The position numbers were made by a program, and so were the translations under genes. A stretch of DNA of 64,000 bases from Haliotis rubra (lineage: Eukaryota): assembly GCF_003918875.1 (NCBI RefSeq), contig NW_025766978.1, forward strand, positions 248,001 to 312,000, given 5' to 3'. This document shows, one piece after another, positions 15,216-60,505 of the stretch. Below the pieces are notes generated by a model. That model did not search any database, was not told the DNA's origin, and saw only the letters and a program-made list of their open reading frames with translations. The first letter of the stretch is position 1, and every line of letters starts with the position of its first letter.

Positions 15216-16459
15216 ATGGCACTATTACATTCTGGTTCATCTCGTAGTGAGAAGAAAAAGGCGTTTTGAGGATTTTTAGATCCTTCAAATGGAAGCATTA
15301 CTCCAAACAATGATTCTTGGGCTCGATTTTTGTGTGATCGAGGCTGCTGATTTTTACCGATCAAGCTTAACCCATTCGCTGTTTCAAAGGCTATATCTGG
15401 GATTTGTGGTGAGGTTAACAACGTCACCCGGCTCCGTACTGGTTCACTTCTTGTGGACTGTGCACGGAAGCAGCAATCTCTAAATTTGTTATCGATCAAA
15501 ACATTTGCAAATGTTGAGGTTGCTGTGTCGGTGCACGGGACACTGAACTCTTAATCGAGGCATTGTTCGTGACGGGGCTCGTTGCCTGTCCGACATGTCT
15601 GAAGAGGAAATCAGTGCGGAGTTGAAGGAACAGGCGGTAACAGCAGTTAAACGCTTCACAATAAAGAAAGATGGTATTACCGTAAATACCAACACGTATC
15701 TCATGACATTTGCTCGTTCTACCCCTTCCAGCATCAATCAAAGCAGGTTATCTCAATATCGGGTGGAGGTGTATGTCCCGAATCCTCTCCGATGCTACAA
15801 ATGTCAACGATTCGGCCATGGTTCCAACTCATGTCGAAACTCTGTGGTTTGTTATCGTTGTGGTGACAACCACGAGGCACTGACTGCAAGAAAGACTTCA
15901 GATGCTGTAATTGCGATGGCACCCATGCCGCATCATCAAAATCTTGCCCTGTATGGCAACGAGAATCTAGCATCATGAAGGGTGAAATGCCATAATAACA
16001 TATCTTTACCTTGAGGGCAAAGAAGCTGTTTTACGACACAGTCAACAACTCCATCGATGATAACTTATTCTGCAGCAGTGTCTCGATCTATGACAACGTC
16101 ATCTGTATCTTGTCAAACCGACTTGACTTGGATCCGGACTGAACAACCTGTTGCTTCAGCCGCTCCACCAAAATCCCCAGTCACTCAGTCAACGTCTGCC
16201 TCTCAGACAGAGAGTCAGCCTGAGATACCCCTCACAGATGTCTATTAAAGCAGCCAGTTCCTATAAACTCAACAAAAGGAAAGCACAGAGGAAAAAACAG
16301 AATAGAAAAGAATCAATCACGATCCCTTCATCTCCAGAGGTTACTTTACAGAACTCCTTTGAATCTCTTGACATGGAGGTTACTCTGTCCTCCCAGGACA
16401 GGCGGAAGAATAGTTCTTCCTCACATTCACGTGAAAGATCGCCCGTTGAACCACCATGA
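15216..16459 (+). pseudogene. LINE ORF1 (gag-like nucleic-acid-binding protein), frameshifted
   Basis: KLNPFAVSKAISGICGEVNNVTRLRTGSLLVDC; YVPNPLRCYKCQRFGHGSNSC; CYRCGDNH zinc knuckles; stop overlaps the ORF2 start (ATGA, 16456-16459). Confidence 0.85.
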
Positions 16460-19400
16460 CACAGTTGTCACATATCCTGCAGTGGAATTGTAGAGGACTG
16501 AAAATAATTTCAGTGAAATGCAATTGCTGATACAGGACTTTCAGCCAGCAGCGTTATGTCTCCAAGAGACATATTTAAAACTACTGATGCCTTTACTTTG
16601 AGACAGACAGTACAGCGATTTTCATTCTTTTCTCCTCCGGGAGATCGAGGCAACTGGAGGCGCTTCTATTTTGGTTCACCAGAGCGTCATACACAGCCCT
16701 GTCACTCTAAATGCGAATCTTCAGAGCTGTTGCTGTGCGTCTCACTTTGCACATTGCTCTGACATTGTGCAGCTTGTATATCCCTCCTTCTTCAAATATT
16801 CAACAATCCGATCTTCAAAATCTGTTTGATCAACTTCCGAAGCCATGTCTCATCATGGGCGATCTGAACGGTCACAACCCGCTTTGGGGAAGTGACCATA
16901 TTAATACTAAAGGTAAAATCCTTGAGGAATTTATTTCCGATAATCACCTGTGTATATATAACGATGGTTCTCCCACTTATCTACATCCAGGTACGGGAAC
17001 ATATTCTTCCCTGGATCTGTCAATTGCCGACTCCAGCTTGTATAATGAATTTGAATGGTTGGTCCATGACGACCTATGTGGGAGTGATCACTTCCCCACC
17101 ATTCTCAAAACAGTCAACCCTGGTGATGATCCACCTTTATCGAGAAGGAACTTTGCCAGGGCTGACTGAATCATTATTGAGACTCTGTGTGCTGAACAAT
17201 TAACTCATGATCGGTTTAGCAACAGTGAAGATCCTATTCAGTTGTTTTCTGATATCCTTAATGGCATTGCTGACAGAACAATTACTCAGTCCTCTGCGGT
17301 TCCACATATTCGTAAACCATGGTTCAATAACGAATGTAAACAGGCCAGAAAGTGTAGGAAGAAAGCAGAAAATATTTTCGCCGACATCCTACTGTCCATA
17401 ATTTAGATAAATTTAAAATGTTAAATGCCAAGGCGCGACGCAGTTTTAAACAGAATAAGCGTCAGTCTTGGCGAAACTATGTTTCAAAATAAATTCTCGA
17501 ACACCGATGTCAAAGGTGTGGAACATGATCAAAGAATAAAGGGCAAAGGTTCCAAATCTACCGTTCATCATTTAAAGGACGGTGATAATTTGTTAACTGA
17601 TAAGGCTGACATTGCAAATAAGCTTGGTGAAACTCTCGCCAAACATTCGTCTTCGTCCAATTATGTCCCTGAGTTTCAAAAACATCAGAAACAACAGGAG
17701 AAGAAAGAATAAATTTTACATCAGACAATGGAGAAGACTACAATGAATTATTTTCAATGCATGAGTTACGTACTGCCCTTGAGCAAGCTCATGATACAGC
17801 AACAGGAGCTGATAATATACACTATCAGCTCTTGAAACATTTACCTGATTCATGTTTGGAAACACTTTTAAATATTTTTGATACAATATGGAGTTCAGGA
17901 AATTTTCCAACTTCGTGGCGTAAAGCCATAGTAGTACCTATACCAAAGCCTGGCCGGGATCATACAGATCCGTCTAATTACAGACCAATCTCTTTAACGA
18001 GCTGCGTCTGTAAAACCATGGAACGAATAGTAAATAATAGATTAACATGGTATCTTGAAACCAATCAGCTCATAACAAATATTCAATGTGGTTTCAGGAA
18101 AAATCGTAGTACCATTGATCATTTGGTACGTTTAGAATCCTTTGTAAAAATGCTATAATAAATAAACAACATGCAGTATCGATATTCTTTGATCTTGAGA
18201 AAGCATACGATACCACCTGGAAGCATGGCATTTTGAAGGATTTACATGATTTTGGTTTAAGGGGTCGTTTACCTCTTTTTATTCACAGTTTTTTTAACCG
18301 ACAGGCAATTTCAAGTCCGAGTGGGTTCAACCCTGTCTGACCATTACAATCAGGATCAGGGTGTCCCACAAGGCAGTATTTTGTCTGTCACTTTATTCAA
18401 CATTAAGATCAACAGTTTATCCAAGGTTTTAAACGATTCCATTGATGGATCACTTTTTGTGGATGATTTTAACATTTCTTGTCGCGGTAAGAATATGCAT
18501 ACTATTGAACGCCAACTGCAGTTGTGTTTAAATAAAATAAATAAATGGTGTCTTGAAAACGGCTTTAAATTTTCTAAATCAAAAACTAATTGTCTACACT
18601 TCTGTAGAAAATATAAGCCTCATAAAGACCCAGAACTGTTTTTAAATGGCACTCCCATCAAGGTTGTCAAAGAGGCCAAATTTTTGGGTCTGATTTTCGA
18701 CTCCCATTTAACCTTTCTTCCGCATATTAAATCCTAAAACTAAATGCCTGAAGGCACTCGATTTATTGAAAGTCGTGTCTAATTCAAGGTGGGAAGGGGA
18801 TCAAACTACGCTCCTACACCTTTACAGATCACTTGTCCGCTCGAAGCTTGATTATGGCTCCATCGTATATGGTGGAGCCTGCACAAGCAACTTAAAACTC
18901 TTAGATTCAGTCCACCATCAAGGTCTGAGACTTTGTCTTGGGTCTTTTAGAACTTCTCCTATTGATAGTCTCTATGTTGAGGCTGATGAGCCATCCCTTA
19001 CCCAACGTCGTATCAAACTCTCTTTACAGTATATAACAAAACTCTATTCTAACGAGTCTAATCCTGCATTTAACTGTGTTTTCAATCCTTCTTATGAGGA
19101 GTTGTACAACAAAAAGCCTTCTCTTGTTCCGCCTCTTGGTTTAAGAATTAAACCATTTCTTTCTGCTGCCGGCATTGAGCTGGAAAATATAGCTCCTTCC
19201 GTCTTCTTTCTTCTCCGCCTTGGCAATTGGTTTAGGCCACAAGTTGACCTAACATTAACTACATTTAAAAATCAGAAACAAATGAATTACAGTATAAACA
19301 AGAATTTAGTCAATTAAGAAATAAATATAATACATACAAATCCTTATTTACAGATGGGTCCAAGGATGGTGGCGCAGTGGCATGTGCCACTGTCATTGAA

Positions 19401-20142
19401 TCAGAACAATATCTTCTAGAATACCCGATAACAGCTCTATATTTACAGCAGAAACCAAACGCCATATTAACGGCTCTTAAATATATTCAAAGACATCCTA
19501 AACATAAACAGTACATAATCTTTTCCGATTCCTTTCATGTCTTCAGGCTATTAAAAATATTTCTTGTAAACATCCACTTTTATTAGACATTATTGAATTG
19601 TATAATGAGCTTGCTACTGGCCCAGTGCGACATCGTCTTTTGTTGGTTACCCAGCCACGTTGGCATTTCTGGGAATACCATGGCTGATCTTGCTGCCAAG
19701 GCAGCACTCAACAAATCTGTGACACCACTTCTTATTCCATACTCTGATTATAAAGCTGGCATTAGAACTTACATCCGTGATCTGATGCAGAAGAAGTGGG
19801 ACGCCCAAGTAGGTATTAATAAGTTACATGCAATAAAACCCTATATTGGTTACACCTACTTGGGTTGTCAGTCCAGATTTGAAGAGGTCATTATGCGAAG
19901 ATGTCGCATTGGCCATACCAGATATACTCATGAATATTTATTGAAAGGCGAAGATCCTCCGTTTTGTATCCCTTGTGATGAAAGGATCACAGTCAAGCAT
20001 GTCCTGATTGACTGCATTAGAATATTCCGTCACAAGGGATAAGTATTTTAATGTCAAAACATTGAAGGATCTTTTTAATAATGTTCGTTCTCATTTAGTT
20101 ATTGCCTTTTTAAAAGAATTAGATTTATTAACAGATTTGTAA
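16456..20142 (+). pseudogene. LINE ORF2 (AP endonuclease, reverse transcriptase, RNase H), frameshifted
   Basis: ILQWNCRGL; GDLNGHNPLWGS; SDHFP; NYRPISLTSC; QGVPQGSILS; FVDDF; FTDGSK; CWLPSHVGISGNTMAD; CIPC...TVKHVLIDC; split over many ORF-track pieces by single-base indels. Confidence 0.93.
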
Positions 20143-20953: not shown

Positions 20954-22467
20954 TACTGAGCAGCAAAAAAACCCGTCAGTACGAATTCAAAATTAGATAG
21001 GCACTGTAATCAAATCATTACAGAAAATGACATAATAAGCGGATCAAAAACATTTCTTGTGTACAATATCTTGACACATCAATATATAACTCAGCAGCAT
21101 TTCAAGGCATTCCGTGAACGTTTGCACTCCATTCAGACTCTTGACTTCAATATCTAGTGTGACCACCACGAGCGGCAATAACTGCAGCACAGCGTCTATG
21201 GATGGAGTGCACCGATTGATGAAGGCCACTGGCACCTGGAACCACACTCTGAGAAAGGCCTGGCGCAAAATATTGGCTGTGTTCGGCTTTGGTATGACAT
21301 TATTCAGTCTCCTCTGAATTTCATCCCAGAGATGTTCAATTGGGTTTAAATCAGGACTAAGGGCTGGCCACTGCATAATGTTGAAGCAGATAACCATTGT
21401 AGCTCTGGCAGTATGGGCCCGGGCGTTATCATGCTTGAAAATGTTGTTCCGGTGACGTGCGACATGTGGTATGACGTGGGGTCTGAGAGCTTGATCGATG
21501 TAGCGCTCCGCTGTGATGCCGCCTCCTCTCCCTGGACCAAGGTTCTGGAACACCACAGGACCCACTCTCTGGTTCAGGCCTATTCCACCCCATACCATGA
21601 TGCTTGCACCTTCCCGTGAGTCTCTTTCCATAACACATTGGTCTGAGTAACGCTGGCCACGTCGTCGCCATATTCGTGTTCTGCCATCTGCAGTTGATAC
21701 GCGGTACTGACTCTCATCTGTGAACAGAACAGTTCCCCATTGCCTGTATCGCCAGTTTCGGTGTTGTAGGGCAAACTGTAGACGTTCACGCCGATGACGA
21801 TGGATAAGGACAGGTCCACGGTAAGGTCTACGGCAATGGAGGTTCCCGCTGTTAAGACGTCGGCGTACTGTATCAGTACTGATTGGTCTTCAGTGTGTTC
21901 CCACTGTCTGGCGTGCTGTTTCGGATGCCTACATGAAGGGATTCTGCACATGCTGTCGCACAACATGGCGGTCTTGTGGTCACCCTTGGTCTGCCAGTAC
22001 GGGGGCGATCATTTGTGGTGTTGGTGGCCTGGAAACGTTCCTGCAGCCTGTAGATGGTCCGAACGTTGACCTGGAAGTGATTGGCAACGGCTTGTGCAGT
22101 GTGGCCAGCTACAAGTCTTCCTAGCGCCTTGCTCCTCTGAGATGTCGTGAGTCGCGGCATCGTGCTGACGTTGTAATGTGAATGTCAACCAGGTTTCGGG
22201 GTGCAATTTATAGGGCTGGTCCTTGTGAACAGCACGTGCAGCATGAGTTGCATGAAAAACATAGAGAACACCGTACCATCTCCGAGATCAGGTTGCGTTT
22301 TTGAGACCATTTCCTGGGTTCCATTCCGAGTTTGGGAAGTCATGTCTTTGCTGAGGTAAAGTTGGAGATTTTGTCAAAAATATACAATCAAAAGCATTAA
22401 ATGAGTTTACAGTTATCCGTTTCTGCGACGGAAAATTCCAAACTGACGTTTCCTTTGCTGCTTAGTA
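20954..22467 (-). mobile_element. Near full-length Tc1-like DNA transposon with a degenerate transposase
   Basis: TIRs tactgagcagcaaaaaaacccgtcagt / actgacgtttcctttgctgcttagta with TA flanks; MPRLTTSQRSKALG...RPRTGRPRVTT; VLFTDES; MVWGGI; HDNARAH; WPALSPDLNPIEHLW, in shifted frames from 22160 to ~21150. Confidence 0.93.
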
Positions 22468-31597: not shown

Positions 31598-32340
31598 ACC
31601 CTTATCTAAATGCGTTACCTGAATGCATGGTGGGCGTGAAGAGCGAATGCTTAATTGAACCTAATTGAACGTCCTCTTGTTTATCCCATTGGCTTCGTCA
31701 TTATATTGCTACTTTGGTACATTCATCCCACGTTGTGTCGTGTAAACATAACATGAATTATGTTTGTATTTATCAACTCTATGTAGTCACCCAGCATTCA
31801 CCTGGGCAAGGTGGAGCAAGGTGTAGCTCTGAAATGTCGTGATAAACAACAGTGGAGAATGTTATACGAAAGTAAATAAAAATAAACAAATAATATTGAC
31901 ATTGATATTACAAAGTCGACATGTACGATATTCGCATAAGTTTGACATGTTCCATATCTACATGATGGCAATGTCACAGGTTTCAACGTGCAGGGAAGAG
32001 TTAACTAGATAGATAAATGTCTTCCCCGAGTGAGGCGTGATTGACTTTTGTCGATACGTGAACCAGTTCTGCTTAATATTCAAACATTCATTTGCTGATT
32101 TCACTGGCGACATGTGTATATGTATATGTGTGTGAGTGTCGTAGATGTGAATGCGCGTGAGATAATGCGCGTGTTTTATGATGAACACATCAGTAAATGC
32201 AGAATAAAGGCTGTAAATTCCGTGAAGTTTGTTTCGTGTAACTCTAACTACTGCTTGTGACACAAGGAACTACCGGTCCTGGGTAGTGTCTGTACCAATC
32301 TCGGCATGGTGGATATGTTGTAGTATTTCAGTATAGTATA

Positions 32341-33058
32341 CTATGGAATCCTGGAAGGGACATTGTCGCGTTGTCGCCCTCTCAAATACAAGCAAAATTA
32401 AACAAAACGCGACACGCGACATCGCGACAACGCGACATTTCGCCCATTTGTCGCATTGTCGTGATGTCGCGTGTCGCGTTTTTGAATAATATATTTTTCA
32501 TTCCTCAAAGGGCGACACGCGACATAGCGACAATTTTCAAGGTCAAAATATGTCGCGTTGTCGCGCGTCGCCCTATGTAAGATGTGTAAAACAGCCTAAA
32601 ATTTACTAAAACGCGACACGCGACAATGCAGCAACGCGACATTTTGATGAAATGTCGCGTTGTCGCATTGTCGCGTCGCGCTTATTAAAATATTGAGTAT
32701 AGTATGTATTATAACATATGACTAAAAACGCGACAATGCGACATATAATATGTCGCATTGTCGCGTGTCGCGTTTTAGTGAATTTTTAGGCTTCTTTTTA
32801 CACATCTTAGATAGGGCGACGCGCGACAACGCGACATATTTTGACCTTGAAAATTGTCGCTATGTCGCGTGTCGCCGTGAAGGAATAAAATATTATTCAA
32901 AACGCGACACGCAACATCGCAACAATGCCACAAATGGGCGAAATGTCGCGTTGTCGCGATGTCGCGTGTCGCGTTTTGGTTTATTTTGCCTCACTTTACG
33001 TGTTTTTGACAACGCGACAATGCGACATAGCGACAATGTCCCTTCCAGGATTCTATAG
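32341..33058. mobile_element. Foldback MITE, ~720 bp, CpG-rich, TA-flanked
   Basis: ctatggaatcctggaagggacattgtcgc...gcgacaatgtcccttccaggattctatag; ~290-bp inverted arms built from cgcgaca/tgtcgcg motifs. Confidence 0.9.
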
Positions 33059-34906
33059 TATGCATATATTGTCGACATTATATATTTTGTCACCATACCC
33101 AATCAATAATATTCAGAAAGTATCGTTACAACATATTTGCAAAGGGTTGTCCTCATCCATTCAAGTGTACGTCCTTTCCCGAAAACATAGATAATAATTT
33201 CCCTTGTGTCCTTCCTGTGGGTGGAGGGTCACACTCACTCACTCTGAGCGCGACGTCCACGACGGACACAGGAACAGTAACAACTCTGTGGCGCGAGTAA
33301 ACCTGATTCCTTACGTAAGGGCATCATTTGTTTATGTGTTTCACGTAGCCACTAAATTCTGAACATGTAGACAAAATTATCTGAATAAAGTTCTCGATTC
33401 TCATTTATTGTAATTCTTATTATGTTTTCTCGCGTTCTTTGGACTTGTGTCAGCGACTGATTTAAAGATAACCATTTTATATGACGAGGCGGCACGTTTT
33501 AGGTTCTAGTCGGCGGTGTTGGAATGAAAAAAAAAAAGTGTTTTGGGGGAATCGGCAATTTATTTAGAAGGGTCGATGAGAAACACAGAAAATAAAAATG
33601 CTGCCCTAATAGATGGGAATCCTTTACCCCGGTGATAGTTACTGGTACTGGTATAGACAACAGTCATGTGACAATACAGTAAGGTACACTACATAGTTTG
33701 ATGTTGTGTTGGACAGAGTTACTAAATTATGTTTTCAAGAAACACAACCTCACAATACATAAAACTGTATTTTGATTGGTTGAGTTGCCTCTGTGTGTAT
33801 GCCATCAAATGTGGTAGGTATAGTTACCGAGGTGCCAGCTTCGTTTATCCAGTCTGATGCATAATATTGATTTCATATCAGGACATACAATATGTCGTGA
33901 GATACTTACACACTTCTTTTCATGACCAGTCGCGTCGTTATGGTTACTCTGACGTTCAATTACTTCTTCTAAAAGCAAGACGTACGAAGTCCTTACGTCT
34001 TGACTACACTAAACATGTGAAGCACGCCTGTGAGGTGGACGCCCACAATGTTCCCGGGGAGTGAGCCGCGATCATTTCGTGAGGAATACTTCGGCAGGAG
34101 TGGATTGTCAATCACACCAATATCCTTTTTAAAGGGAACAAGTGTTGGGGTGTCGTAGTTCCGTCTTGTCGTTGAATAATCTGCTCATCCAGGCGCGGTA
34201 GTGTCATCTCGTGGTTCTAACACCTGCTCCTCCATTTTGGTGTTCTTTTATCTCCTGGTTCAAGCACTTACAGACAGACAGTTTATTCAGAAGTTTAGGC
34301 CAAACGACCCATAGTACAGTTACATATGTTCAAAGTTTACATACTTATAACGTTTTACATCTACATATAAATACATTTTTCCAAAAACGAGCAACAGAGG
34401 TAATAACATCTTTAATTTTAGAATTTAAGAGATTTATCATCAAATGTTGATCCTTGTATTCTGCGCATAAGTTTGGAAGATATTTATTTCGCAGGTCTCG
34501 ATAGTGCTACCACACAAATAACACATGATACTCATCTTCGACCTGGTTGCTATTACATTTGACACATTTAATTTCACTTGCATTTAATTTTTTACTTTTA
34601 CGCTCACTTTTACAAGCACCTGCTCATCCAGATGTTGTAGTGTTATCCCGTGGTTCAAGCATCTGCTTATCCAGGTGGGGTACTTTCGTCACTCAGGTGC
34701 GCTGGTATCATCTTGTCGGTTCATAATCTGCTGCTCCAGGTGCGGTGGTTAAAACACGTGGTTCATAGCCAACCACTTATTGTTCTTTCGTTTTCGGGGT
34801 TTCCTACATGCACAAAATATGGCAGTGTGATATCCTTATACTCAGTTTCAAGTATGTTGGATGAAAGGTGAGTTTTGGGAAGGCATGGCCTGTGCCTCAT
34901 TACAGA

Positions 34907-36322
34907 TGTTAAAACGCGAGTGTTGGGGAATTAGCTCGCTTGGCAAGAGGTATGACTATTATACCAACCCACACACAACACAACACCTGAGTAAAATAAA
35001 CAAGGAGTTTATTACACAGCAGTCACAGGATGATTTCACATAATCAATCAATAATGGTATGGTTTATAATTAGTTATTAGAACATGTTAACACTGTAATC
35101 ATCTATCAAAGTACATAAACATCACACTTGGATTCGTTACACATACTACATTAATCATGATACACATTCAAAAGTATACAACGTACTGTGATTGTTCAAT
35201 ACTCTACACACCAACCCAGTGGGCGTTCATACCGCACAAAACAGCATATTGCTCATAACGCAATGTACTAGTTAGGATACACACTCTATACAATCCAGAC
35301 ATCACCCCAGTGGGCGTTTATACAATGTACATTCTAGAACAGTCACTAAACATCATCGTGTTTACACATAATGCAACAGTTAGGATACCCGACACACTAT
35401 ACAATCTAGACATCACTCCAATGGTCGTTTATACAATGTGCATTCTACAACAGTCAATAAACAACATCGTGTTTACACGTAATGCAACAGTTAGGATACC
35501 CGGCACACTCTATACAATCTAGACATCACCCCAATGGGCGTTCATACAATGTGCATTCTACAAAAGTCAATAAACAACATCGTGTTTACACGTAATGCAA
35601 TAGTTAGGATACCCGACACACTCTATACAATCTACAATAGCCACAAACAATGTATTATCAAATAACCTATCGTAAACAGTAATACAGACTGAGTAATTGT
35701 GAGATATATATTAAACGACGCCACGTTCCACATAGACCTAACGGTTGCGCCAAGGGTCGGACATATAGTTAAGGTATCTACAGTAGATTACAGTTAATAT
35801 AGAATAGCAATGGAAAAGATTTGTCAAAGTAGAAGAAAGTAAAGTTTCTTACCTGAGTAAAATAAACAAGGAGTTTATTACACAGCAGTCACAGGATGAT
35901 TTGTGACTGTGTGTCGTTCCTGTTTTATACCTTTTCCAGTTATCATACTAGATAATCCCATTTACTGATAAAACTGACGATAAAGTTGTTGTTGTGAACT
36001 TCAGTTGCAGTTAATCCTATTGCCTAACTCGACTGACGATAAGGTGCCTACTGCGCATTTAAGTTACTCCATCTTGGCAGGATTGTCTAATGAGTTTGAT
36101 AAACGTCGGTGTTGATGAGTGAAGTTCGCACTGAATTTGATTAGCCTATTTCTATCTGACGACACATACAAGATACTGGTCTCGTCCGTTCGTTATCATT
36201 GTGACCCTTGGCGGCTTGCAGATTGTGAAACGTGGTCAGTTAGTCTGTAACATTTCCATATTTCAATAACGTATACTGTCATAAAATATTTTAAAACATT
36301 GTGCGTTTCTCCCATGTTAATA
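34907..36322 (-). repeat. 3' LTR (~1416 bp) with ~114-bp internal tandem repeats (35200-35640)
   Basis: Bounded by the PPT and the TSD; minus-strand TATAAAA at 35929-35923; AATAAA within a 52-bp block present twice. Confidence 0.8.
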
Positions 36323-36376
36323 GTATCCCCCTATTCTTTTAAAATTTCGTCCCGAAATTTGTATGAACAAAATGCA

Positions 36377-37410
36377 CTATGCATATTTACACAACGATGG
36401 GTAAATAGAAATAGCTGGCAGTGTCCCTGCACGTTTCACAGAGACAACTGGCAGCATGTACCCATGATGATTAATTAAAATATACGCACAAAATGGCCTC
36501 TTTAAAATTGGGTGCAAACAGCAGGCCGTTCTGAATGGCGGTAGAAAGGAAGAAGGTAACGTGACTGCCTTACCTAAAGAAACATCTGTGATCGTAAGCC
36601 CTGGCATATCGACATATACTCTCGGACGAATCCAACCTATTATCTGAAGATTGGTAATGTTAACTCGGGCCTCTATGTTGTACTGCGTGATACATTTAGT
36701 AAGTTTGGCAATTGGTATAAAAAAGCATTTGGGACCATTTGTTATTTCCAATACGATAGTACAAGACTGTTGATAATTTTGTCGAAACATCCTGAGAGTG
36801 AAGCACAATAAAAGGGAAACAATGAAGACCGACTGAATTGTAAGTACAGTAACCATGGCGTGGTCTAAGGTAAATTCGATTGACTGTAATGCCGATAAAG
36901 GGTTGAAGGGAGTGGTCGTGGGAATGTTATATTTGAATTGAGGAACTTGAACGTCTGCCTTGACCCTACTGGTCTGGAGCAGTGTGAGCAGGGTGGAGAT
37001 TGTGCGTAGTCTCTGAAAGGTATATACAAAAGCAAGAGTAGATGCGCATGCCAAAGTTAAGGCAATAAGTGTCACTATGGAGTCGAGGTTGGGCCACGAA
37101 GCAAAAGGATAGGTTCAGCTAAATTGGTAAAGGCAATTTTTCTGTTCTTAGCCCTTTGTACTAGTCGGGATAAACTCAGATGGTCTTTCTTATCTTGACT
37201 TATAACAGAAGTCAAAGAATGATTAAATAAGTGAAAGGGAGGCACGTCGATATTGATAGGTTCCCGGAATGTAGTATCACCACTGATAGATGCATATTGT
37301 GAGACAGGGACCCGAAGATACTTACTTCCGCCGGTATCATAGTTAAGAGTAAACTCACACACAATGGCGAAACGAAGTAATAGGATACATACTGGGTATA
37401 CAGGCTCCAC
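36377..37410 (-). pseudogene. C-terminal part of an envelope-like membrane polyprotein (frameshift at ~37075)
   Basis: Heptad-like LTSVISQDKKDHLSLSRLVQRAKNRKIAFTNLAEP, TM TLIALTLACASTLAFVYTF, second TM MVTVLTIQSVFIVSLLLCFTL; stop codon just before the PPT, the position env occupies. Confidence 0.7.
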
Positions 37411-39256
37411 TAAATAGCGCGGTGAATATGCCTAGCAATGTGTCTCCATAACATGGGTATACAATAGCTGTTTCGACAGGGAACGACTATATCATATCTT
37501 CCACAATGACACATACAAGATACTGGTCTCGGACGTTCGTTATCAATGTGACCCTTGGTAGCTTGCAGATTGTGAAACGTGGTCAGTTAGTCTGTAACAT
37601 TTCCATATTTCATAAACGTATACTGTCATAAAATATTTTAAAACATTGTGCGTTTCTCCCATGTTAATACAGATATATGGACATGTATCAGTTCTGCAGA
37701 TATTTATAGGTTTGAAATTAATAACACAATGGTCATTACTAAACTGAAGTATACTAGCCAAATAAAACCCTATATATTGGAACAAAACAAGCTCTTGAAA
37801 GACTTGTGACAAGTTACGTGAACAGGCAGGTACTGATTCAAAGAAATAGTGTTGTTTTCCGTTGCGTGTGATCCTATTACTACGAGGGATAATACTGTAT
37901 GTACATGCGCCGGTCATGGTTTCCCTGCGGATTACTTTATTTTCTATCATCCAGATTATACATTTGGTAGAAGTGTCCCGTGCTGCTGCACATCTCACCT
38001 GTCAAGGGAAGTAAGTTTATTAGATTCATTTCTGCTAGCTACGACAACAATAGATGCACACAATGTTTGTATTGTGAAAATATTATGCATATTTTTTGTT
38101 TCCGATGGGAATGTTATCCGAACCTCTCCATACACCGTACACCCATCACAGACGCCGATCTTGGATGCGTTTCACCGAAGTGTAGCTTGTGTGGAATAAG
38201 AAGAAGTATTCACCGTTGTCGGATCTATGGGAATAGTGGCATGGAATTGTCGGATGTGAAACGGAAATGCCACGAGTTCAGCTACATCAGCGCCAACCCT
38301 TTACATCGCCCTGGAGACATCATCCCATTCATTCTGGAGAAGGTGATTTGCACGTCGGCCAACAGTTAAGATGGCAAGTTGTAAATAACACATCAGCATT
38401 TCAGATAATGTCGGCATGATAATGTTTTACCATTTGAATAAAGCTTTAAACCTTCCAACGGATACGTTGTCAGAAATGTCGCTACAAATAAAATTAAATG
38501 TTTGGTCTTATTGTCATTGTAGATCGTGATCTAGACTAACAACTAGTCTCTGAAATGAACATATTTTACTGAAAAAAGTTCATAGTAAAAGAAAATATAA
38601 TTTAATGAAAAGGAGCCCTGAGACTTTCTTCATTTTCAGAAGCTGAGGAAATCTAAGACTTGCCACATTTTCTAGACTTGCGTGGGCTTTCTTGGATATA
38701 TTTGCTTCAGGGTCTGTACGACAGACTAATCGTGATCATGCGTTCTCATTATTGACTTATTGACTGTTTATACATTATGTCCGTGTTATCTATTAGACGC
38801 GTCGTCGGACTATTAAAATAATACATTTTGTAAAAGTATTATGCAACATTTCGATAACATTTTAACATATATCTTCTAATTGCATACATTTGTTTTTAAC
38901 ACTGCAGCTGCTTGTCCTCTGAATGCTGTCGTATATTGTGCCTGTATTCATGGTGTACGTTCTCCTAATGACGTGGGCCATGGCCTCATGGCAATAAAGT
39001 TTTGCAAGGATCCAGAATCAACCAGATGGTACACTTTGATATGTTGTATCAATGTGGCAGACAATGGGTTGTAAACTCCGTCTGTGTCAACACGTGCATC
39101 ATGTACACACAATCCTGCACAGCACACCCCAGACTTACGTCTATAAACACACACCGTTACTCAGGGTCTTGTTTCTTAAAGCGTCCGTAGTCTCCAGACA
39201 GTCGTAACTTTATGTTAAAGTATGGGTTACGATCGTCTTAGGGCTGAGATCGGTTT

Positions 39257-43360: not shown

Positions 43361-43778
43361 TCTTGTAGAGGAATGGCCCACTCATCTATGTAGAGGAATG
43401 TACGTGTACCTCGTGCATCTTGTGTCAAGAGTGATATATGTTGAATGTGAATCCCTGCCAACCAGTTTAACAGTCAATTGAGTTTATGCATACGCCTTTG
43501 AAAATGGTATTTTCATATAAACAGTATGAATTTTGATTGCAATGGCGTGGAACCTAAGAAACTGTACATGTATATGAGAATCTTTCTAGCACTATGTTTC
43601 TTCTTATACACAGATGGAACTCGTTGAAATGAAGTTGTTGATTTCTTTCCGTGGATCCTGCTCGAAACCATCTTTTCTCGGACAAATTCGTGGTTAAGAA
43701 ATACAGAACAAATGTCAAGCGCTTCGTTACTTTGAAGTGATGACACTCTTGCTACTAATGTCATAATCATTAGGTTAA

Positions 43779-44834
43779 AGGTCACATGCAAAGTAAAACA
43801 CAACTTTGCAGATTCTGATACCTTTCGGTATGGACTTACCGAAACAAATCGTCCAAATTGCAAATTCAACTTATAAAGTTAAAAAATAACGCGATGAAAA
43901 AAACGCGCGAAATCGGAGTTCAAACGTTTCACTAATTTTCCCCCGACTTTTCTGGGGAAAACGGGTTTCAACAGCTGGGCTGCGCTCATAGCACGTGCGC
44001 AGTGAAATAGGTTCGCGCAGCTTGGAAGCGGGTTGTCGGGTGAATACTCGGTGAAGGCTTTGGTGTGAGCTATTTTTCTAATGTTTTGTTGATATCTCAC
44101 AGGCGCGAGCTTTTTATATGTTATGACAGTAAATTAACTGTTTATATAATTTCATTTGTCTATTTCACCACACGTTCTTCTTACCGAGTCACTTTCTCAG
44201 TTCGATACTTAAAAGCAATGTCATTACTTAGCGTTGTACAGAATTTCTAACTGTGATATAGATATGTCGTTGTCACAGACAAAACTCAATGTCTTGTTTT
44301 ATTGACACCTGTGTGTCTGCCTGCCTGTCTGACAATATTCAATACACAGCTGCTATCACTGACCACATGCAATTTGAACTTAACACCAATCAGGCTATAC
44401 ACCATAAACAAAATGCATTGATTTATGGCCCGAGTTCGGTCTCTGTCACATTATGTAATTACACAGACAGGCAGGTGTGATACTTGAACACATGACATGT
44501 TATGATGTCTGTTGATTGCAAAATGTTATACACAAAAAATGAGCATGTATTTACAAAACCCAACATCTCTATATAATGAGCCGTGAAGGCATCTGCAAAT
44601 GAACCAGCCGTTACACTTGAGTGCACACCCACCCGCTCTGACTGGGTTCGGTATCCCGGCTGCTTCGTTTCTTGGGAAGTAAACCGAAGTACACAATTTT
44701 GCACTTTTGATTTGCGATTGTACGCTTATAATTTTGTTTATATGTTTTTTCATTACCAGCAATGTATATTATATGTCATGAATAAGTGATAATTGTGTTT
44801 TAATTATGTTTGATTTTTTGGTTGCATGTGACCT
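43779..44834 (+). mobile_element. Non-autonomous TTAA-flanked DNA transposon (Kolobok-like), copy 1
   Basis: TTAA|aggtcacatgcaa...ttgcatgtgacct|TTAA; second copy at 49661-50731. Confidence 0.88.
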
Positions 44835-45139
44835 TTAAATAATCGGTCTATTTCCTGGCAGGCGATGTAATTAAATTATCAACACGAGGCTAAGTTAGAT
44901 GTTGCCCTTTGAAGAACCTTTCCAACTAAAGAGCAGAAATATGCAACATACTCTCGTCTGCTGTCGAGTCTGCAGTGATGATGATGACGTGCAGCACGTG
45001 TACAAAGCAACATGTTGGTTAATCTCATTCAGTCATCATGTTATGCGTCACGCGAGTGTGTGTGAGTGAACCCAGCATATACATACCGTGACAATATATA
45101 ACAGTAAATACCACAACTATCCTGTATAATTGTTAGTTA

Positions 45140-45228
45140 GCATTCACCTGACGAAGGGGCAAGGAACAGCCCAGAAACTGTGTCTATACAATAAAGAAGA
45201 AATTGATATCCATAATATTTTGTCTTAT
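45140..45228 (+). mobile_element. Penelope-like pseudo-LTR remnant with a decayed minimal hammerhead
   Basis: cac-CTGACGA-ag-gggc-aaggaaca-gccc-a-GAAA-ct-gtg followed by aataaa. Confidence 0.5.
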
Positions 45229-45229
45229 A

Positions 45230-45660
45230 ATACATGACTATACATATGACTATACATGACTATACATGACAATACTTGACAATACATGAGTATAAATGAC
45301 AATACATGATTATACATGACTATACATGACAACATATTACTATAAAAGAAAATACATGACTATAAATGACAATACATGACTAAACATGACAATACATGAC
45401 TATAAATGACTATACATGACTATAAATGGCTATACATGACAATACATGACTATACATGACAATACATGACTATACATGACAAGATATTACTATAAATGAC
45501 TATATATGACTATAAATGACTATACATGACTATACATGACGATAAATGACAATACATGACTATACATGACAATACATGACAGTTCATGACAATAAATAAC
45601 TATACATGACAATACATGACAATTCATGACAATAAATGACAATGCGTGACTATACATGAC
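45230..45660. repeat. 10-bp tandem repeat
   Basis: (tatacatgac)n. Confidence 0.9.
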
Positions 45661-45756
45661 ATATAAACAACGTATTTACCTACCAGGTGTATGGGCCTGG
45701 GGTTATTCCACGCATGCTGACCGAGCTGCATCAAATGTTATCTCGTCTGCTAAAAA

Positions 45757-45912
45757 NNNNNNNNNNNNNNNNNNNNNNNNNNNNNNNNNNNNNNNNNNNN
45801 NNNNNNNNNNNNNNNNNNNNNNNNNNNNNNNNNNNNNNNNNNNNNNNNNNNNNNNNNNNNNNNNNNNNNNNNNNNNNNNNNNNNNNNNNNNNNNNNNNNN
45901 NNNNNNNNNNNN
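45757..45912. other. Assembly gap
   Basis: Run of N. Confidence 1.
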
Positions 45913-46029
45913 ACCATATAGGCATATTGTGTGCACGTTCAGCAGTGTTAATTTCAATGATCATGATGTTTCTGTGGATGGTAGTATATCTGTGGCATTC
46001 AGTAGGGAAGTGTGTGTTGTTTTCACACC

Positions 46030-47060
46030 ACAAACACTATAGAAACACTATATACACTACACATAGAGCACTATATAGGCACTATATACACTACATGAGC
46101 ACTATATAGGCCACCTACAGTGTACAAACACCACATACACTATAGAAACACTACATACACTACATGAGCACTATATACACTACATGAGCACTATATACAC
46201 TACATGAGCACTATATACACTACATGAGCACTATATAGGCCACCTACACTGTACAAACACAACATACACTATAGAAACACTACATACACTACATGAGCAC
46301 TATATACACTACATGAGCACTATATACACTCCATGTACATGAGCACTATATACACTACATGAGCACTATATAGGCCGCCTACAGTGTACAAACACCACAT
46401 ACACTAAAAACACTAAACACTACACCATACACTACATGAGCACTATATACACTACATGAGCACTATATACACTACATGAGCACTATATACACTACATGAG
46501 CACTATATACACTATATAGGCCACCTACACTGTACAAACACCACATACACTATAGCAAACACCACTATACACTGAGCACTATATAGGCACAGTACAAACA
46601 CCACATGAGCACTACATACACTATAGACACACTACATGAGCACTATATACACTACATGAGCACTATATACACTACATGAGCACTATATACACTACATGAG
46701 CACTATATAGGCCACCTTCACTGTACAAAAACCACATACACTATAGAAACACTACATACACTACATGAGCACTATATACACTACATGAGCACTATATACA
46801 CTACATGAGCACCTACCACCTGTACAAACACCACATACACTATAGAAACACTACATACACTACATGAGCACTATATACACTACATGAGCACTATATAGGC
46901 CACCTACAGTGTACAAACACCACATACACTATAGAAACACTACATGAGCACTATATACACTACATGAGCACTGTATAGGCCACCTACACTGTACAAACAC
47001 CACATACACTATAGAAACACTACATACACTACATGAGCACTATATACACTACATGAGCGG
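46030..47060. repeat. Compound satellite: 20-bp unit interspersed with a recurrent ~50-bp unit
   Basis: (ctatatacactacatgagca)n plus ggccacctacactgtacaaacaccacatacactatagaaaca. Confidence 0.9.
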
Positions 47061-48009
47061 TGCATACACCACTTACACTGTACAAGCACCACGCACACTA
47101 ACTGTTCCACATACACAACCTAAACACTACATGCATCACCTATACTATATATACACCACAAAACACTTTTTACTACTAAAACTCCACCAACAACTCGCAC
47201 ATCACCAAGTTCGATCAGCTTTCCAACATAGGTTTTACAGTTGCCATCACCGTTAATCAATAACGCCTTCTACAGTTGCTCTATGTTTCCCGCCATTGAT
47301 GTTACCTGACATGAACCTGTGTCCGTCTTCCTCCACGACTGACAGTTTAAGTACCTTCATTTGTCCGTCGTGTCAACACCTCGGTTCACAACGGAACATC
47401 TGATCATACAAGCTCAAACCAAGATGGCGCCAATGAACACTATGATTAAACACGTGTACATAGACGTTAGGCCTAAATATATAAACACAGGCACCCGGTA
47501 ATATTACCATAAGCTGGCGTGGATGTTTAGAAACAAGATAACGTCCATGTTTACCCAGTGCCAGAGACGAAAAGATTGCAGCCTGGAAGATTATGGACGT
47601 TGGCAGAATGCCCCGCCTGATTATAATGGATGTGCATTAATGACGGTTCATCTGGGTGTTCTGCACGTCTAGGCAATACGGAGAGGTCTGGGTGAAGCTA
47701 GTATCCCTGTACTGCTGGGATGGGAGGCTAGCAACAGTCGGCCTATAGGTATGTAATTCCACACATTGCTGCATCCAAGGAGAAGATAAAAGCGGTTGTT
47801 GACAGAGGAGAAAAGTGACAGGGGATGGTCTTAATGGATTAAAGATTGCAGACCCATCCAGTGTCGGCGATTGTTTAGATTCCAGGTGCAGTCCTCCACT
47901 CAAACGGACTTAATAACCTTTTGGCAGCGTGAATAGTCTCCAATCAGGGTCTGTTCCGTAGGGACACGCTCTGTCAATTCCTGTGAATGGAAAATCTGAA
48001 GAATGTGAG

Positions 48010-49230
48010 TTTCACTGGGTATGGTGCACACTTGATTATAGGAGCGTCACTGGGTATGGTACACTCTGGATTATAGGGCGTTCATCGTGTATGATGCAGT
48101 CTTGATTATAGGGGTGTCACTGGGTATGGTGCGCTCTGGATTATAGGGGTGTCACTGAGTATGGTGCGCTCTGGAATATAGGGCGTTCATTGTGTATGAT
48201 GCAGTCTTGATTATAGGGTGTCACTGGGTATGGTGCGCTCTGGATTATAGGGGTGTCACTGGGTATGGTGCACTCTGGAATATAGGGCGTTCATTGTGTA
48301 TGATGCAGTCTTGATTATAGGGTTTCACTGGGTATGGTGCACTCTGGATTATAGGGTTTCACTGGGTATGGTGCACTCTGGATTATAGGGTTTCACTGGG
48401 TATGGTGCAATCTTGATTATAGGGTTTCACTGGGATATGGTGTACTCTGGATTATAGGGGTTTCACTGGGTATGGTGCAATCTTGATTATAGGGTTTCAC
48501 TGGGTATGGTGCAATCTTGATTATAGGGTTTCACTGGGATATGGTGTACTCTGGATTATAGGGGTTTCACTGGGTATGGTGCAATCTTGATTATAGGGTT
48601 TCACTGGGTATGGTGCAATCTTGATTATAGGGTTTCACTGGGATATGGTGTACTCTGGATTATAGGGGTTTCACTGGGTATGGTGCAATCTTGATTATAG
48701 GGTTTCACTGGGTATGGTGCAATCTTGATTATAGGGTTTCACTGGGATATGGTGTACTCTGGATTATAGGGGTTTCACTGGGTATGGTGCAATCTTGATT
48801 ATAGGGTTTCACTGGGTATGGTGCAATCTTGATTATAGGGTTTCACTGGGATATGGTGTACTCTGGATTATAGGGGTTTCACTGGGTATGGTGCAATCTT
48901 GATTATAGGGTTTCACTGGGTATGGTGCAATCTTGATTATAGGGTTTCACTGGGTATGGTGCAATCTTGATTATAGGGTTTCACTGGGATATGGTGTACT
49001 CTGGATTATAGGGGTTTCACTGGGTATGGTGCAATCTGGATTATAGGGTTTCACTGGGTATGGTGCAATCTTGATTATAGGGTTTCACTGGGTATGGTGC
49101 AATCTTGATTATAGGGGTTTCACTGGGATATGGTGCACTCTTGGATTATAGGGGTTTCACTGGGTATGGTGCACTCTTGATTATAGGGTTTCACTGGTTA
49201 TGGTGCACTTTTGACTAAAGGGGCGTACAC
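48010..49230. repeat. Minisatellite, 34-bp unit with a higher-order trimer
   Basis: gggtttcactgggtatggtgcaatcttgattata; every third unit is the variant gggatatggtgtactctggattatagggg. Confidence 0.95.
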
Positions 49231-49660
49231 TGGAAGTAATACAATCCGGATGATAGGGGTTTCACAGGGACCTGTTCAGTCCAGATTGAGGTGGAGGGGG
49301 GGTGTACTTGGATGGGTGCAGTTGGATTAAGGAGTTTTCCCGGTAAAAATGCAGTCAAATGGAACTCTTCCTTGCAAATTCATTGATAACTTATAGCTAA
49401 AATACATTGAATTATCATGAAACGGCCCTCCCATTATCAGAAATTTGCGGGCCGCTGCAAATGATATTGGACCGCTCAACCTTAACGACGGGCCACTATC
49501 AGTTCTGTTGTCAAGTGACGTCATAGTGGGTGCGTGGACTTACGGTTCATTCGACATTGGCTTTGGACTGGCCGATATTCTGGGTCATACAAGTCAAAGC
49601 AACACGAATTCCCGCTTTAAATAGCGATAATATTGGCTTTCTTGCTGGTGCTAACCTTAA

Positions 49661-50731
49661 AGGTCACATGCAACCAACAAATCAAACATAATTAAAACAC
49701 AATTATCACTTATTCATGACATATAATATACATTGCTGGTTATGAAAAAAACATATAAACAAAATTATAAGCCTATAATCGCAAATCAAAAGTGCAATAT
49801 TGTGTACTTGGGTTTACTTCCCAAGACACGAAGCAGCCGGGATACCGAACCCGGTCAGAGCGGGTGGGTGTGCACTCAAGTGTAACGGCTGGTTCATTTG
49901 CAGATGCCCTCATGATGTGTGTGTATATATAGAGATGTTGGGTTTTGTAAATACATGCTCATTTTTTGTGTATAACATTTTGCAATCAACAGACATCATA
50001 ACATGTCATGTGTTCAAGTATCACACCTGCCTGTCTGTGTAATTACATAATGTGACCGAGACCGCACTCGGGCCATAAATCAATGCGTTTTGTTTATGGT
50101 GTATAGCCTGATTGGTGTTAAGTTCAAATTGCATGTGGTCAGTGATCGAAGTTGTGTATTGAATATTGTCATTAGCAGACAGGCAGGCAGACACACAGGT
50201 GTCAACAAACAAGACATTGAGTTTTGTCTGTGACAACGACATATTTATATCACAGTTAGAAATTCTGTCAACGCTAAATAATGACATTGCTTTTAAGTAT
50301 CGAACTGAGAAAGTGACTCGGTAAGAAGAACGTGTGGTGAAATAGACAAATGAAATTATATAAACAGTTAATTTACTGTCATAACATATAAAAAGCTCGC
50401 GCCTGTGAGATATCAACAAAACATTAGAAAAATAGCTCACACCAAAGCCTTCACCGAGTATTAACCCGACAACCCGCTTCCAAGTTGCGCGAACCTATTT
50501 CACTGCGCACGTGCTATGAGCGCAGCCCAGCTGTTGAAACCACTTGAATTCCCCCCAAACGCTGGGGGAAAATTAGTGAATCGTTTGAACTACGATTTCG
50601 CGCGGTTTTTTTTCATCGCGTTATTTTTCAACTTTATAAGTTGAATTTGCATTTTTGATGATTTGTTTCGGTAAGTCCATACCGAAAGGTATCAGAATCT
50701 GCAAAGTTGTGTTTTACTTTGCATGTGACCT
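49661..50731 (-). mobile_element. Kolobok-like MITE, copy 2 (inverted relative to copy 1)
   Basis: TTAA at 49657-49660 and 50732-50735; reverse complement of 43779-44834. Confidence 0.88.
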
Positions 50732-50990
50732 TTAACAATTGCACTATTAACGTTGTTGTTGGACCAAAACCGAACACTGACATAGTTTGACATGTTGCAG
50801 GCTATGGTCGTGTCAAAGGCCAAGGTCGAATATCGTCACTTTCTGTTGTGACGTCACTTGAATTGTTCGATGACGTAATTGCATTCGGTCAGTCAACCCC
50901 GTCAGAGGTTGGTTTTGAGTAAATTTACAGTCAAATTCCTTCATTGTTTCCATTTTATTTTCAACACAAATTCCATGTATTTTAGCAATA

Positions 50991-59192: not shown

Positions 59193-60440
59193 TCACGTGT
59201 CGTCAACTCTATTGACCTCCTCTGCTATGTTCAGATGAACCTTTTCCGAATCTGCATCGTAAACCGCTTTTGTTTCCTTAGCGCAATTGTCATTGCCATT
59301 CCTGACTGGAGAACGATTGATAATAACTGATGGCTGTGTCTCAACGTTAGTGTACTGTGTATAGCTGTTCGAAGCACTGTTTTGACGTGAAGGGAAAAAG
59401 AGGCATGGTACTACCAGTTTGAACTCTTTCTTAAAGTTATCATTCATCCAGGCATACAGGAAAGGGTTATATATCGTTGAGCTCATTGCGATGACATGGG
59501 CAATGAAGAATATCAAAGTGAAATAGTACCACACAGCAATGGTCGTCTCATACTCTCGGACAAGATGGACAACATTCAAGGGCATCCAGCAACACACAAA
59601 TATCGTAACCATGGCAATCAACATTCTGTTGGTACGCTTTTTTCTTTTAATCTCCAGTTCATCCCGCTCCCGCGTCCTTGACCCTGAGCCAATCTTGACC
59701 TTCGTTCTTTTCTTCAAGGCCAAGGACACCATGGTGTAGCAGAAGGTGATTATACTGCAAGGCACTATGTACTGTAAGACTAGACTGGTTACAGTGAAAA
59801 ACTGCCGGGCTTGAACTCGCGGCCATTTCTCGGAGCATGCGTAGCTGTCCGTCTTATTGGTCACCTCAACCTCGTGGTATATTCCGAGCGGTAACGAAAT
59901 GGACACGGAAATGATCCATATAGCGATAATCATCAAGAGACACATGTAGATCTTCATACGCGGTTTGAAGGGGTACACAATCACGAAATACCGGTCAACG
60001 GCAATGGCGGTGGAGGTCAGGGTCGAGACGTACACGCTGATGCAGAGGATCATGGGAACGATGTGACAGAGTCCCTCTCCAAACACCCAGGAATCCAGGA
60101 AATACGAGATGGGAGTGAAGGGTACTGCTAGGAGGGCGATCAAAATGTCTGACACGGCCAGGTTGGTGATGAAGATGTTTGTAATGGTTTGCATGGCCTT
60201 GTTTCTCAGCACGACGTACACCACGAGGGAGTTGCCGGTGATGCCCAGGAGGAAGATGATGCAGTACATGATGATGAAGAGGACCATCAACCACGTGAGA
60301 CGCATGACCTGCTGGTTGTCCTCAGGGTCCATCAGGGGGTAGTAAGGGGAGACGCTCTCATAACGGGGGGCTTGTTGGGTGGTGCTGTCACCCCCCCAAT
60401 TACTTGCCACGTATCCGCTGGATGACGTAATAAGAGACAT
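59193..60440 (-). CDS. sNPFR: Class A GPCR, short neuropeptide F / prolactin-releasing peptide receptor-like (415 aa, single coding exon)
   Basis: Seven TM segments; GNSLVVYVVLRNKAMQTITNIFITNLAVSD, LAVPFTP, STLTSTAIAVDRYFVIVYPFKPRM, CWMPLN, AHVIAMSSTIYNPFLYAWMNDNFKKEF; ATG in a gccaccATG context at 60440; in-frame stop upstream. Confidence 0.92.
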   Translation of the reverse strand: MSLITSSSGYVASNWGGDSTTQQAPRYESVSPYYPLMDPEDNQQVMRLTWLMVLFIIMYCIIFLLGITGNSLVVYVVLRNKAMQTITNIFITNLAVSDILIALLAVPFTPISYFLDSWVFGEGLCHIVPMILCISVYVSTLTSTAIAVDRYFVIVYPFKPRMKIYMCLLMIIAIWIISVSISLPLGIYHEVEVTNKTDSYACSEKWPRVQARQFFTVTSLVLQYIVPCSIITFCYTMVSLALKKRTKVKIGSGSRTRERDELEIKRKKRTNRMLIAMVTIFVCCWMPLNVVHLVREYETTIAVWYYFTLIFFIAHVIAMSSTIYNPFLYAWMNDNFKKEFKLVVPCLFFPSRQNSASNSYTQYTNVETQPSVIINRSPVRNGNDNCAKETKAVYDADSEKVHLNIAEEVNRVDDT

Positions 60441-60447
60441 GGTGGCT

Positions 60448-60463
60448 GTGACGTCACTTCCGC
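60448..60463 (-). promoter_or_regulatory. Overlapping ETS-CRE composite motif just upstream of the GPCR ATG
   Basis: GCGGAAGTGACGTCAC on the minus strand. Confidence 0.4.
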
Positions 60464-60505
60464 TCAAGATATGAGATCAGTTGGCAACACAGGTCAAGGA
60501 CATAC

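Follow-up and report, generated by a model that had tools for sequence, protein, structure and literature searches.

Anatomy of an env-bearing element in Haliotis rubra

The window analysed here is a 64-kb stretch of the Haliotis rubra genome (assembly GCF_003918875.1, contig NW_025766978.1, positions 248,001 to 312,000), to whose whole length all window coordinates refer; numbers such as L011 or L013 denote other loci of the same genome. On its minus strand lies a 2763-bp long terminal repeat (LTR) element (37669-34907) with CAGA at each flank, within which an initial annotation had placed an env-like polyprotein (36377-37410) carrying a second membrane protein module beyond the transmembrane (TM) anchor of a fusion protein. 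This second module is real and old. The parts of the element are as follows.

34903-34906, no strand: target-site duplication (TSD), left copy, CAGA
34907-36322, minus: complete 3' LTR, 1416 bp, termini TATTAAC...TTTTAACA
35851-35902 and 34985-35036, minus: two copies of a 52-bp repeat inside the 3' LTR
36326-36340, minus: polypurine tract, 3 bp ahead of the 3' LTR
36377-37114, minus: 245-aa open frame
36392-36406, minus: late-domain-like motif IYPSL (ALIX type) in the C-terminal tail
36434-36766, minus: beta-rich domain of ~110 aa, predicted to be cytosolic, with Mononegavirales matrix proteins as its nearest folds
36794-36859, minus: TM2, predicted anchor of the second protein
36860-36955, minus: short S/T/P-rich luminal stalk with a conserved P-x-F-x-Y motif at its start
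36956-37015, minus: basic QRLR and internal signal peptide, predicted signal-peptidase site after V-K-A
37016-37078, minus: TM1, anchor of the F-type fusion protein
37105-37302, minus: last part of the F ectodomain (env residues 513-578), out of frame with what follows downstream
37075-37431, minus: first reading frame of the interval, 118 aa
37302-37507, minus: ~205 bp from inside a related non-coding LTR family (L011, L022, L027, L028); not env
37508-37669, minus: 5' LTR, its first 162 bp (95.7% identity with the 3' LTR)
37670-37673, no strand: TSD, right copy, CAGA

Read along the minus strand, the module has the order that had been proposed, i.e. TM1, QRLR, a hydrophobic stretch ending in SRVKA, a T/P-rich segment, TM2 and the SCTIVLEITNGPKCFFIPIAKL domain, with the polypurine tract and LTR directly after it. 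The 4-bp TSD was likewise correctly read, and recurs in five of nine other elements or solo LTRs; a 5-bp alternative, ACAGA, was rejected because the T is part of the LTR in every other copy. The LTR termini are TA..CA or TA..TA, not TG..CA. The interval is, however, two frames (37431-37075 and 37114-36377) rather than one, separated by a frameshift near 37105-37110, and its designation as env holds from 37302 downwards (env residues 513-822 of an 824-codon frame) but fails for 37508-37302, which is 85-92% identical to the non-coding LTR family. The segment 37108-36392, corresponding to env residues 584-822, shares 95% identity with the open 824-codon frame of L013, and the final codons of the 245-aa frame are unlike those of other copies. 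With gag, pol and the fusion ectodomain missing, and the 5' LTR reduced to its first 162 bp, the window copy is a dead, deleted and frameshifted chimera that may have arisen by a template switch or by later deletion. This state and the apparent env-gag splicing described below are additions to the initial annotation, whose observation was partly confirmed and whose interpretation as a whole is supported.

The 52-bp LTR repeat carries AATAAA and a donor-like CAG-GT in each of its two occurrences, and a short LTR form of ~550 bp lacks the part between the repeats (L014:1370-1913; L023:2140-2695). The non-coding family L011, L022, L027 and L028 has LTRs 78-85% like those of the window element and an internal region of ~1-2 kb.

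The element family and its F-type fusion protein

Searched at the DNA level, the genome yielded 51 matches (40 of 375 candidates scored), and other copies hold what the window copy has lost: gag, a pol with protease (PR), reverse transcriptase (RT), RNase H (RH), integrase (IN) and chromodomain, and an F-type ectodomain, as expected of the endogenous retrovirus-like element that had been proposed. The env-bearing loci L015 and L017 contain gag, PR, RT, RH, IN and chromodomain, with frame breaks; the order PR-RT-RH-IN after gag was established with Pfam on the sister locus L024 and is the same in L015 and L017. The chromodomain (PF00385) scores above cut-off in L013 and L024, C-terminal to the integrase. 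The 5' part of env is present in four copies at 96-100% identity. LTR pairs are 99.7% (L013) and 99.1% (L014) identical, and the family has therefore been recently active; full copies carry TGG, a candidate primer-binding site, two bases past the 5' LTR. The sisters L020, L023 and L024, which share 94-99% Pol identity, are env-less, and since their 3' region holds remnants of the env start, TM1 and C-terminus, env was lost there. L020 is a tandem of units with a common LTR.

The ectodomain is F-type. It matches F proteins at the profile level (PDB 9w4d, E 2.8e-17), and its structure model (predicted local distance difference test, pLDDT, 80) matches the RSV and hPIV3 F folds with E ~2e-9, in agreement with the fusion-protein assignment put forward initially. 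A furin site, RSRR-A, lies at residue 131 of env, and furin-like sites occur in 44 of 56 env proteins. The Baculo_F profile is below cut-off for this family (E 1.8e-4) and above it in 9/19 relatives; coronavirus spike rows in the profile comparison were heptad-level matches only. In the features described in the accessible text of Chary and Hayashi (2026, PMC13524379), the family agrees with the chromodomain-bearing F-type errantiviruses known from Mollusca, Annelida and Cnidaria.

In a subfamily of five copies (L073:7905-8477, L077, L079, L084, L091) the F ectodomain is lost and the matrix-like domain kept, with one common junction fusing the env signal peptide to TM2; L073 is open through the domain, and the other four are broken to varying degrees.

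Spread, age and selection of the second module

A protein-level search of the genome with the module gave 71 matches from 120 candidates scored, far beyond chance. Extraction of 40 of these 71 loci for family comparison identified nine families in this genome that carry the module, with tails 24-60% identical. A wider profile search returned 938 clusters at 50% identity, of which the best 150 were inspected. Where a relative is assigned to a species, it is a bivalve protein (Mactra, Mytilus, Pinctada, Mya), and the module is present there too. F and the module stand together in 56 of 71 env rows.

The ratio of nonsynonymous to synonymous substitution rates (dN/dS) is 0.16-0.33 in three between-family pairs, two further pairs being saturated, 0.32-0.73 within families (six pairs) and 0.23 for the window copy against L013. 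The domain is nearly as conserved as the F ectodomain (40% vs 45%), and the distances of the two are correlated across families (rho 0.63, p 0.007). Integrase distances, for which the integrase pieces are partial in 3/9 families, correlate marginally with those of the domain (rho 0.49, p 0.042) and not significantly with those of the ectodomain (rho 0.41, p 0.076).

No host relative of the module was detected in Pfam or PDB sequence comparisons. Pfam gave no family for either window frame, and the PDB sequence search gave nothing for the domain or for the single env protein; an L27 domain, matched by Pfam in 4/23 domain rows with a best E of 0.019, was rejected. A word-seeded search with env residues 590-824 gave 0/1905 candidates, longer fused forms numbered 0/7991 among proteins of 822-2345 aa (weak evidence), and an ESM Atlas search from a stored homologue returned no usable match. 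Four residues of the domain, E16, C23, C34 and H109 (window 36416-36793), are near-invariant and represent a possible metal site, and a C-P-x-x-C-x-x-C stretch follows the His in many relatives.

A predicted internal signal peptide and second anchor

Topology was examined in an alignment of 71 env proteins, 67 of which span the TM region and 64 of which give a basic anchor after TM1, using our own version of the (-3,-1) signal-peptidase rule rather than SignalP. A signal-peptidase-type site (small residue at -1, small or aliphatic at -3) is present in 61 of the 64 anchored rows, whereas shuffled rows give 36.4 +/- 3.7 sites and 0/2000 shuffles attain 61; 50 of the 61 sites lie 16-17 residues from the anchor. 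The hydrophobic core of the putative signal peptide has a mean Kyte-Doolittle hydropathy (KD) of 1.68 over 10 aa, compared with 2.3-2.6 over 19 aa for TM1 and TM2. All 64 anchored rows have TM2 ahead of the domain (minimum KD 1.87), and the stalk is 40% S/T/P. Charge is more positive after than before TM1 in 67/67 rows and TM2 in 65/67, a positive-inside bias that would put the stalk on the luminal side and the beta domain on the cytosolic side. Ectodomain and domain cannot be told apart by their counts of N-glycosylation sequons (1.05 vs 0.94 shuffled; 0.74 vs 0.71). The internal signal peptide, TM2 and cytosolic domain are conserved as predicted features, and the second protein is likely freed from F by signal peptidase.

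Possible matrix likeness and late-domain motifs

The domain was modelled with a pLDDT of 89. When its fold was searched against 48,161 chains, the top five matches were matrix proteins of four viral families, as were eight of the top 12; matrix proteins rank first in two aligners, with weak Z and identities of 8-17%, and there is no sequence-level match between the domain and Mononegavirales matrix proteins. A coronavirus M/ORF3a-like fold was absent among the structure matches listed, which leaves such a fold possible. The domain carries net positive charge in 54/56 env proteins.

Tails were taken after the conserved His, which yielded 142 from 166 proteins scanned, 75 of them at least 20 residues long. 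Within these 75, [LIVM]YPx[LIM] occurs in 27 (shuffles: mean 0.3, maximum 3) and P[TS]AP in six (0.1, maximum 2), the two lying adjacent in several tails; PPxY is not enriched (3/75 vs 0.8 in shuffles). The YPxL-type motif is found 29 times in the final 40 residues vs twice in 69,957 other residues, and the window copy retains IYPSL. In the accessible text of PMC3640512, YxxL and PT/SAP are given as the ALIX-binding and Tsg101-binding motifs of matrix proteins, and LYPSL is cited as a late domain of Rous sarcoma virus Gag; the tail motifs here are putative recruiters of ALIX and TSG101. Late motifs are absent from the seven Gag frames examined (one an 87-aa piece only), and the Gag N-termini examined are of low complexity. 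Nearest folds and tail motifs together lend two supports to a predicted matrix-like character, and the module may work like a matrix protein; being transmembrane-anchored and part of a polyprotein, it is not classed as a member of a matrix protein family.

Probable splicing of env from gag

The env frame has no Met before codon 100, i.e. the first Met lies past the signal peptide. In one contig from run X1, presumed to be RNA, gag is connected with the start of env over a gap of 4296 nt bounded by GT..AG (depth 3.9; the shorter flank of the joint measures 30 nt); runs X2, X5 and X6 did not show this joint. Donor and acceptor are both phase 1, and the joint is in frame. Ahead of the env signal peptide, 9/9 families have a phase-1 acceptor together with a pyrimidine tract, a count made without a null comparison. 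A GGT donor stands after CxxC, just ahead of the zinc knuckle, in 7/7 families where the motif was found, and is strong in six of these seven vs 20 of 441 pol Gly codons; that of the window family is the weak one, and the X1 contig uses a donor 18 nt upstream. The predicted NCBI gene models P0003 and P0014 (Mactra, Pinctada) join Gag to env at the same Gly. With one contig and conserved in-phase sites, it is likely that env in full-length relatives is spliced from the end of gag, before the zinc knuckle, and splicing may be the general route for env across families.

Proposed mechanism and alternatives

We consider it probable that env of this chromodomain Ty3/gypsy clade comprises an F fusion protein and a second single-pass membrane protein, likely released from it, with a predicted role as matrix or in budding. 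The env mRNA would be spliced from the end of gag, ahead of the zinc knuckle, to give a product with the order capsid, signal peptide 1, F2/F1, TM1, signal peptide 2, stalk, TM2, basic beta domain and late-domain tail, in which signal peptidase would make two cuts and furin would cleave F. The tethered capsid domain could then co-assemble with free Gag and deliver cores to the membrane, which the matrix-like domain would line whilst the LYPxL/PTAP tail recruited ALIX/TSG101 for scission. The whole arrangement would cover the roles of retroviral MA and p6/p9, which are apparently missing from these Gag proteins. Weighing against the late-domain part of this reading, a late motif is present in just 2/9 families of this genome, and 115 of the 142 tails are without YPxL.

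Env might instead stay uncut after TM1 as one multi-pass protein, in which the short hydrophobic stretch crosses the membrane a second time or forms a re-entrant loop, while the beta domain and late motifs act in cis as an oversized F cytoplasmic tail. Cleavage was not observed, an AlphaFold model has TM1 and the next hydrophobic stretch as a single helix (591-629), and the module lies downstream of F in the full-length relatives examined, all of which would suit such a protein; we nevertheless regard it as rather unlikely, given small residues at -1/-3 at a fixed distance, well over shuffles, and a core that is short and weak beside TM1 and TM2, as those of signal peptides are. A released module could also be a metal-binding or enzymatic accessory protein, as its conserved Cys, Cys, His and Glu might suggest, e.g. 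a membrane-anchored protease or a host-modulating factor, in which case the matrix resemblance would reflect a common beta-sandwich. This we judge improbable: four matrix families top everything else in both aligners, ALIX- and TSG101-type motifs cluster in the tail, and no protease is among the best 50 fold matches, though a protease remains possible.

The idea that the module derives from a captured host gene, or rides along as a passenger without serving the element cycle, is largely refuted already and seems very improbable indeed. The env-less sisters exist, so that the module is dispensable for copying inside the cell, and inspection covered just the best 150 of the 938 clusters; against this stand the want of any Pfam or PDB sequence match to a host family, purifying selection between families, and the near-equal conservation and correlated distances of domain and F ectodomain. 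With regard to the preferred reading, in which a matrix-like protein is released, a further step can be entertained tentatively, although we would lean somewhat against it: the module may be a true, membrane-anchored and single-domain homologue of Mononegavirales matrix proteins, shared with long Aliusviridae F-type glycoproteins, such that an F-plus-matrix cassette moved between negative-strand RNA viruses and Ty3/gypsy elements and enveloped particles form from one spliced polyprotein (tethered capsid, fusogen, ESCRT-recruiting matrix). If true, this would be a route to envelopment distinct from retroviral MA; were the fold match homology, it would bear on the origin of the filo-, paramyxo-, pneumo- and bornavirus matrix protein, and on jingchuviral assembly without an annotated matrix gene.

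Other features of the window

43774-50736: tandem repeats enclosed by long inverted arms, the arms in five pieces of 96-99% complementarity; a possible foldback or DNA transposon
59193-60476, minus: single-frame rhodopsin-family G protein-coupled receptor (7tm_1, E 1.8e-58)
15547-20042, plus: broken LINE with endonuclease, RT and RNase H
21044-21889, minus: Tc1-like transposase
32287-33061: nested inverted repeats, MITE-like

Comparison with known systems

The element type is already known, whilst its env architecture appears undescribed: neither the module nor a capsid-env fusion was found described for such elements in a full-text literature search, which did not cover subscription journals. 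Alphavirus and hepacivirus structural polyproteins likewise comprise capsid, glycoprotein and small membrane proteins split by internal signal peptides; these viruses have class II fusion proteins and no splicing, and the likeness implies no homology. The matrix proteins of Mononegavirales (Borna disease virus M, paramyxovirus and pneumovirus M, filovirus VP40) are free-standing genes encoding peripheral membrane proteins, whereas the module here is transmembrane-anchored and lies inside an env polyprotein. A further parallel may lie in the long glycoproteins of Jingchuvirales (Aliusviridae and some chuviruses): the top five BFVD rows, and indeed all 11 with probability of at least 0.77, are proteins of 739-1235 aa from chu-like or unnamed RNA viruses; their E-values (0.011-0.56) are not significant, and the match is known at the level of the whole protein. 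Aliusviridae glycoproteins are long class I fusion proteins, according to the accessible text of PMC12583693, and a matrix gene is absent from the ICTV profile of the order (PMC10770922).

The chromodomain 'ancient errantiviruses' of Chary and Hayashi are alike in gag-pol with a C-terminal chromodomain, in an F-type env that lies ahead of the 3' LTR and has a furin site and a fusion peptide, and in near-identical multiple copies, a likeness that rests on features described in the accessible part of that paper. Their analysis, as given there, concerned the ectodomain between signal peptide and TM; the main text contains none of 'splic', 'matrix', 'cytoplasmic' or 'budding', and its figures may show an extra TM. 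The same text calls the mechanism elusive for most elements (PMC13524379), and outside Drosophila how env-bearing Ty3/gypsy elements without a retroviral matrix domain achieve membrane targeting and budding is an open question, to which this clade offers a concrete answer in separable parts, i.e. a capsid tethered to the membrane and a matrix-like protein that would be cleaved off and bears late domains. In Drosophila errantiviruses (gypsy, ZAM and the idefix subclade), as far as described in the accessible text of Senti et al. (2025, PMC12992720), Env-F is made from a spliced transcript, as proposed here, and in the idefix subclade the splice donor is inside gag; the donor here sits where the capsid region ends, 240-390 codons into Gag. 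Drosophila Env-F is described there as ending in a TM and cytoplasmic tail, whereas in the present elements a second signal peptide, a second TM and a folded domain follow.
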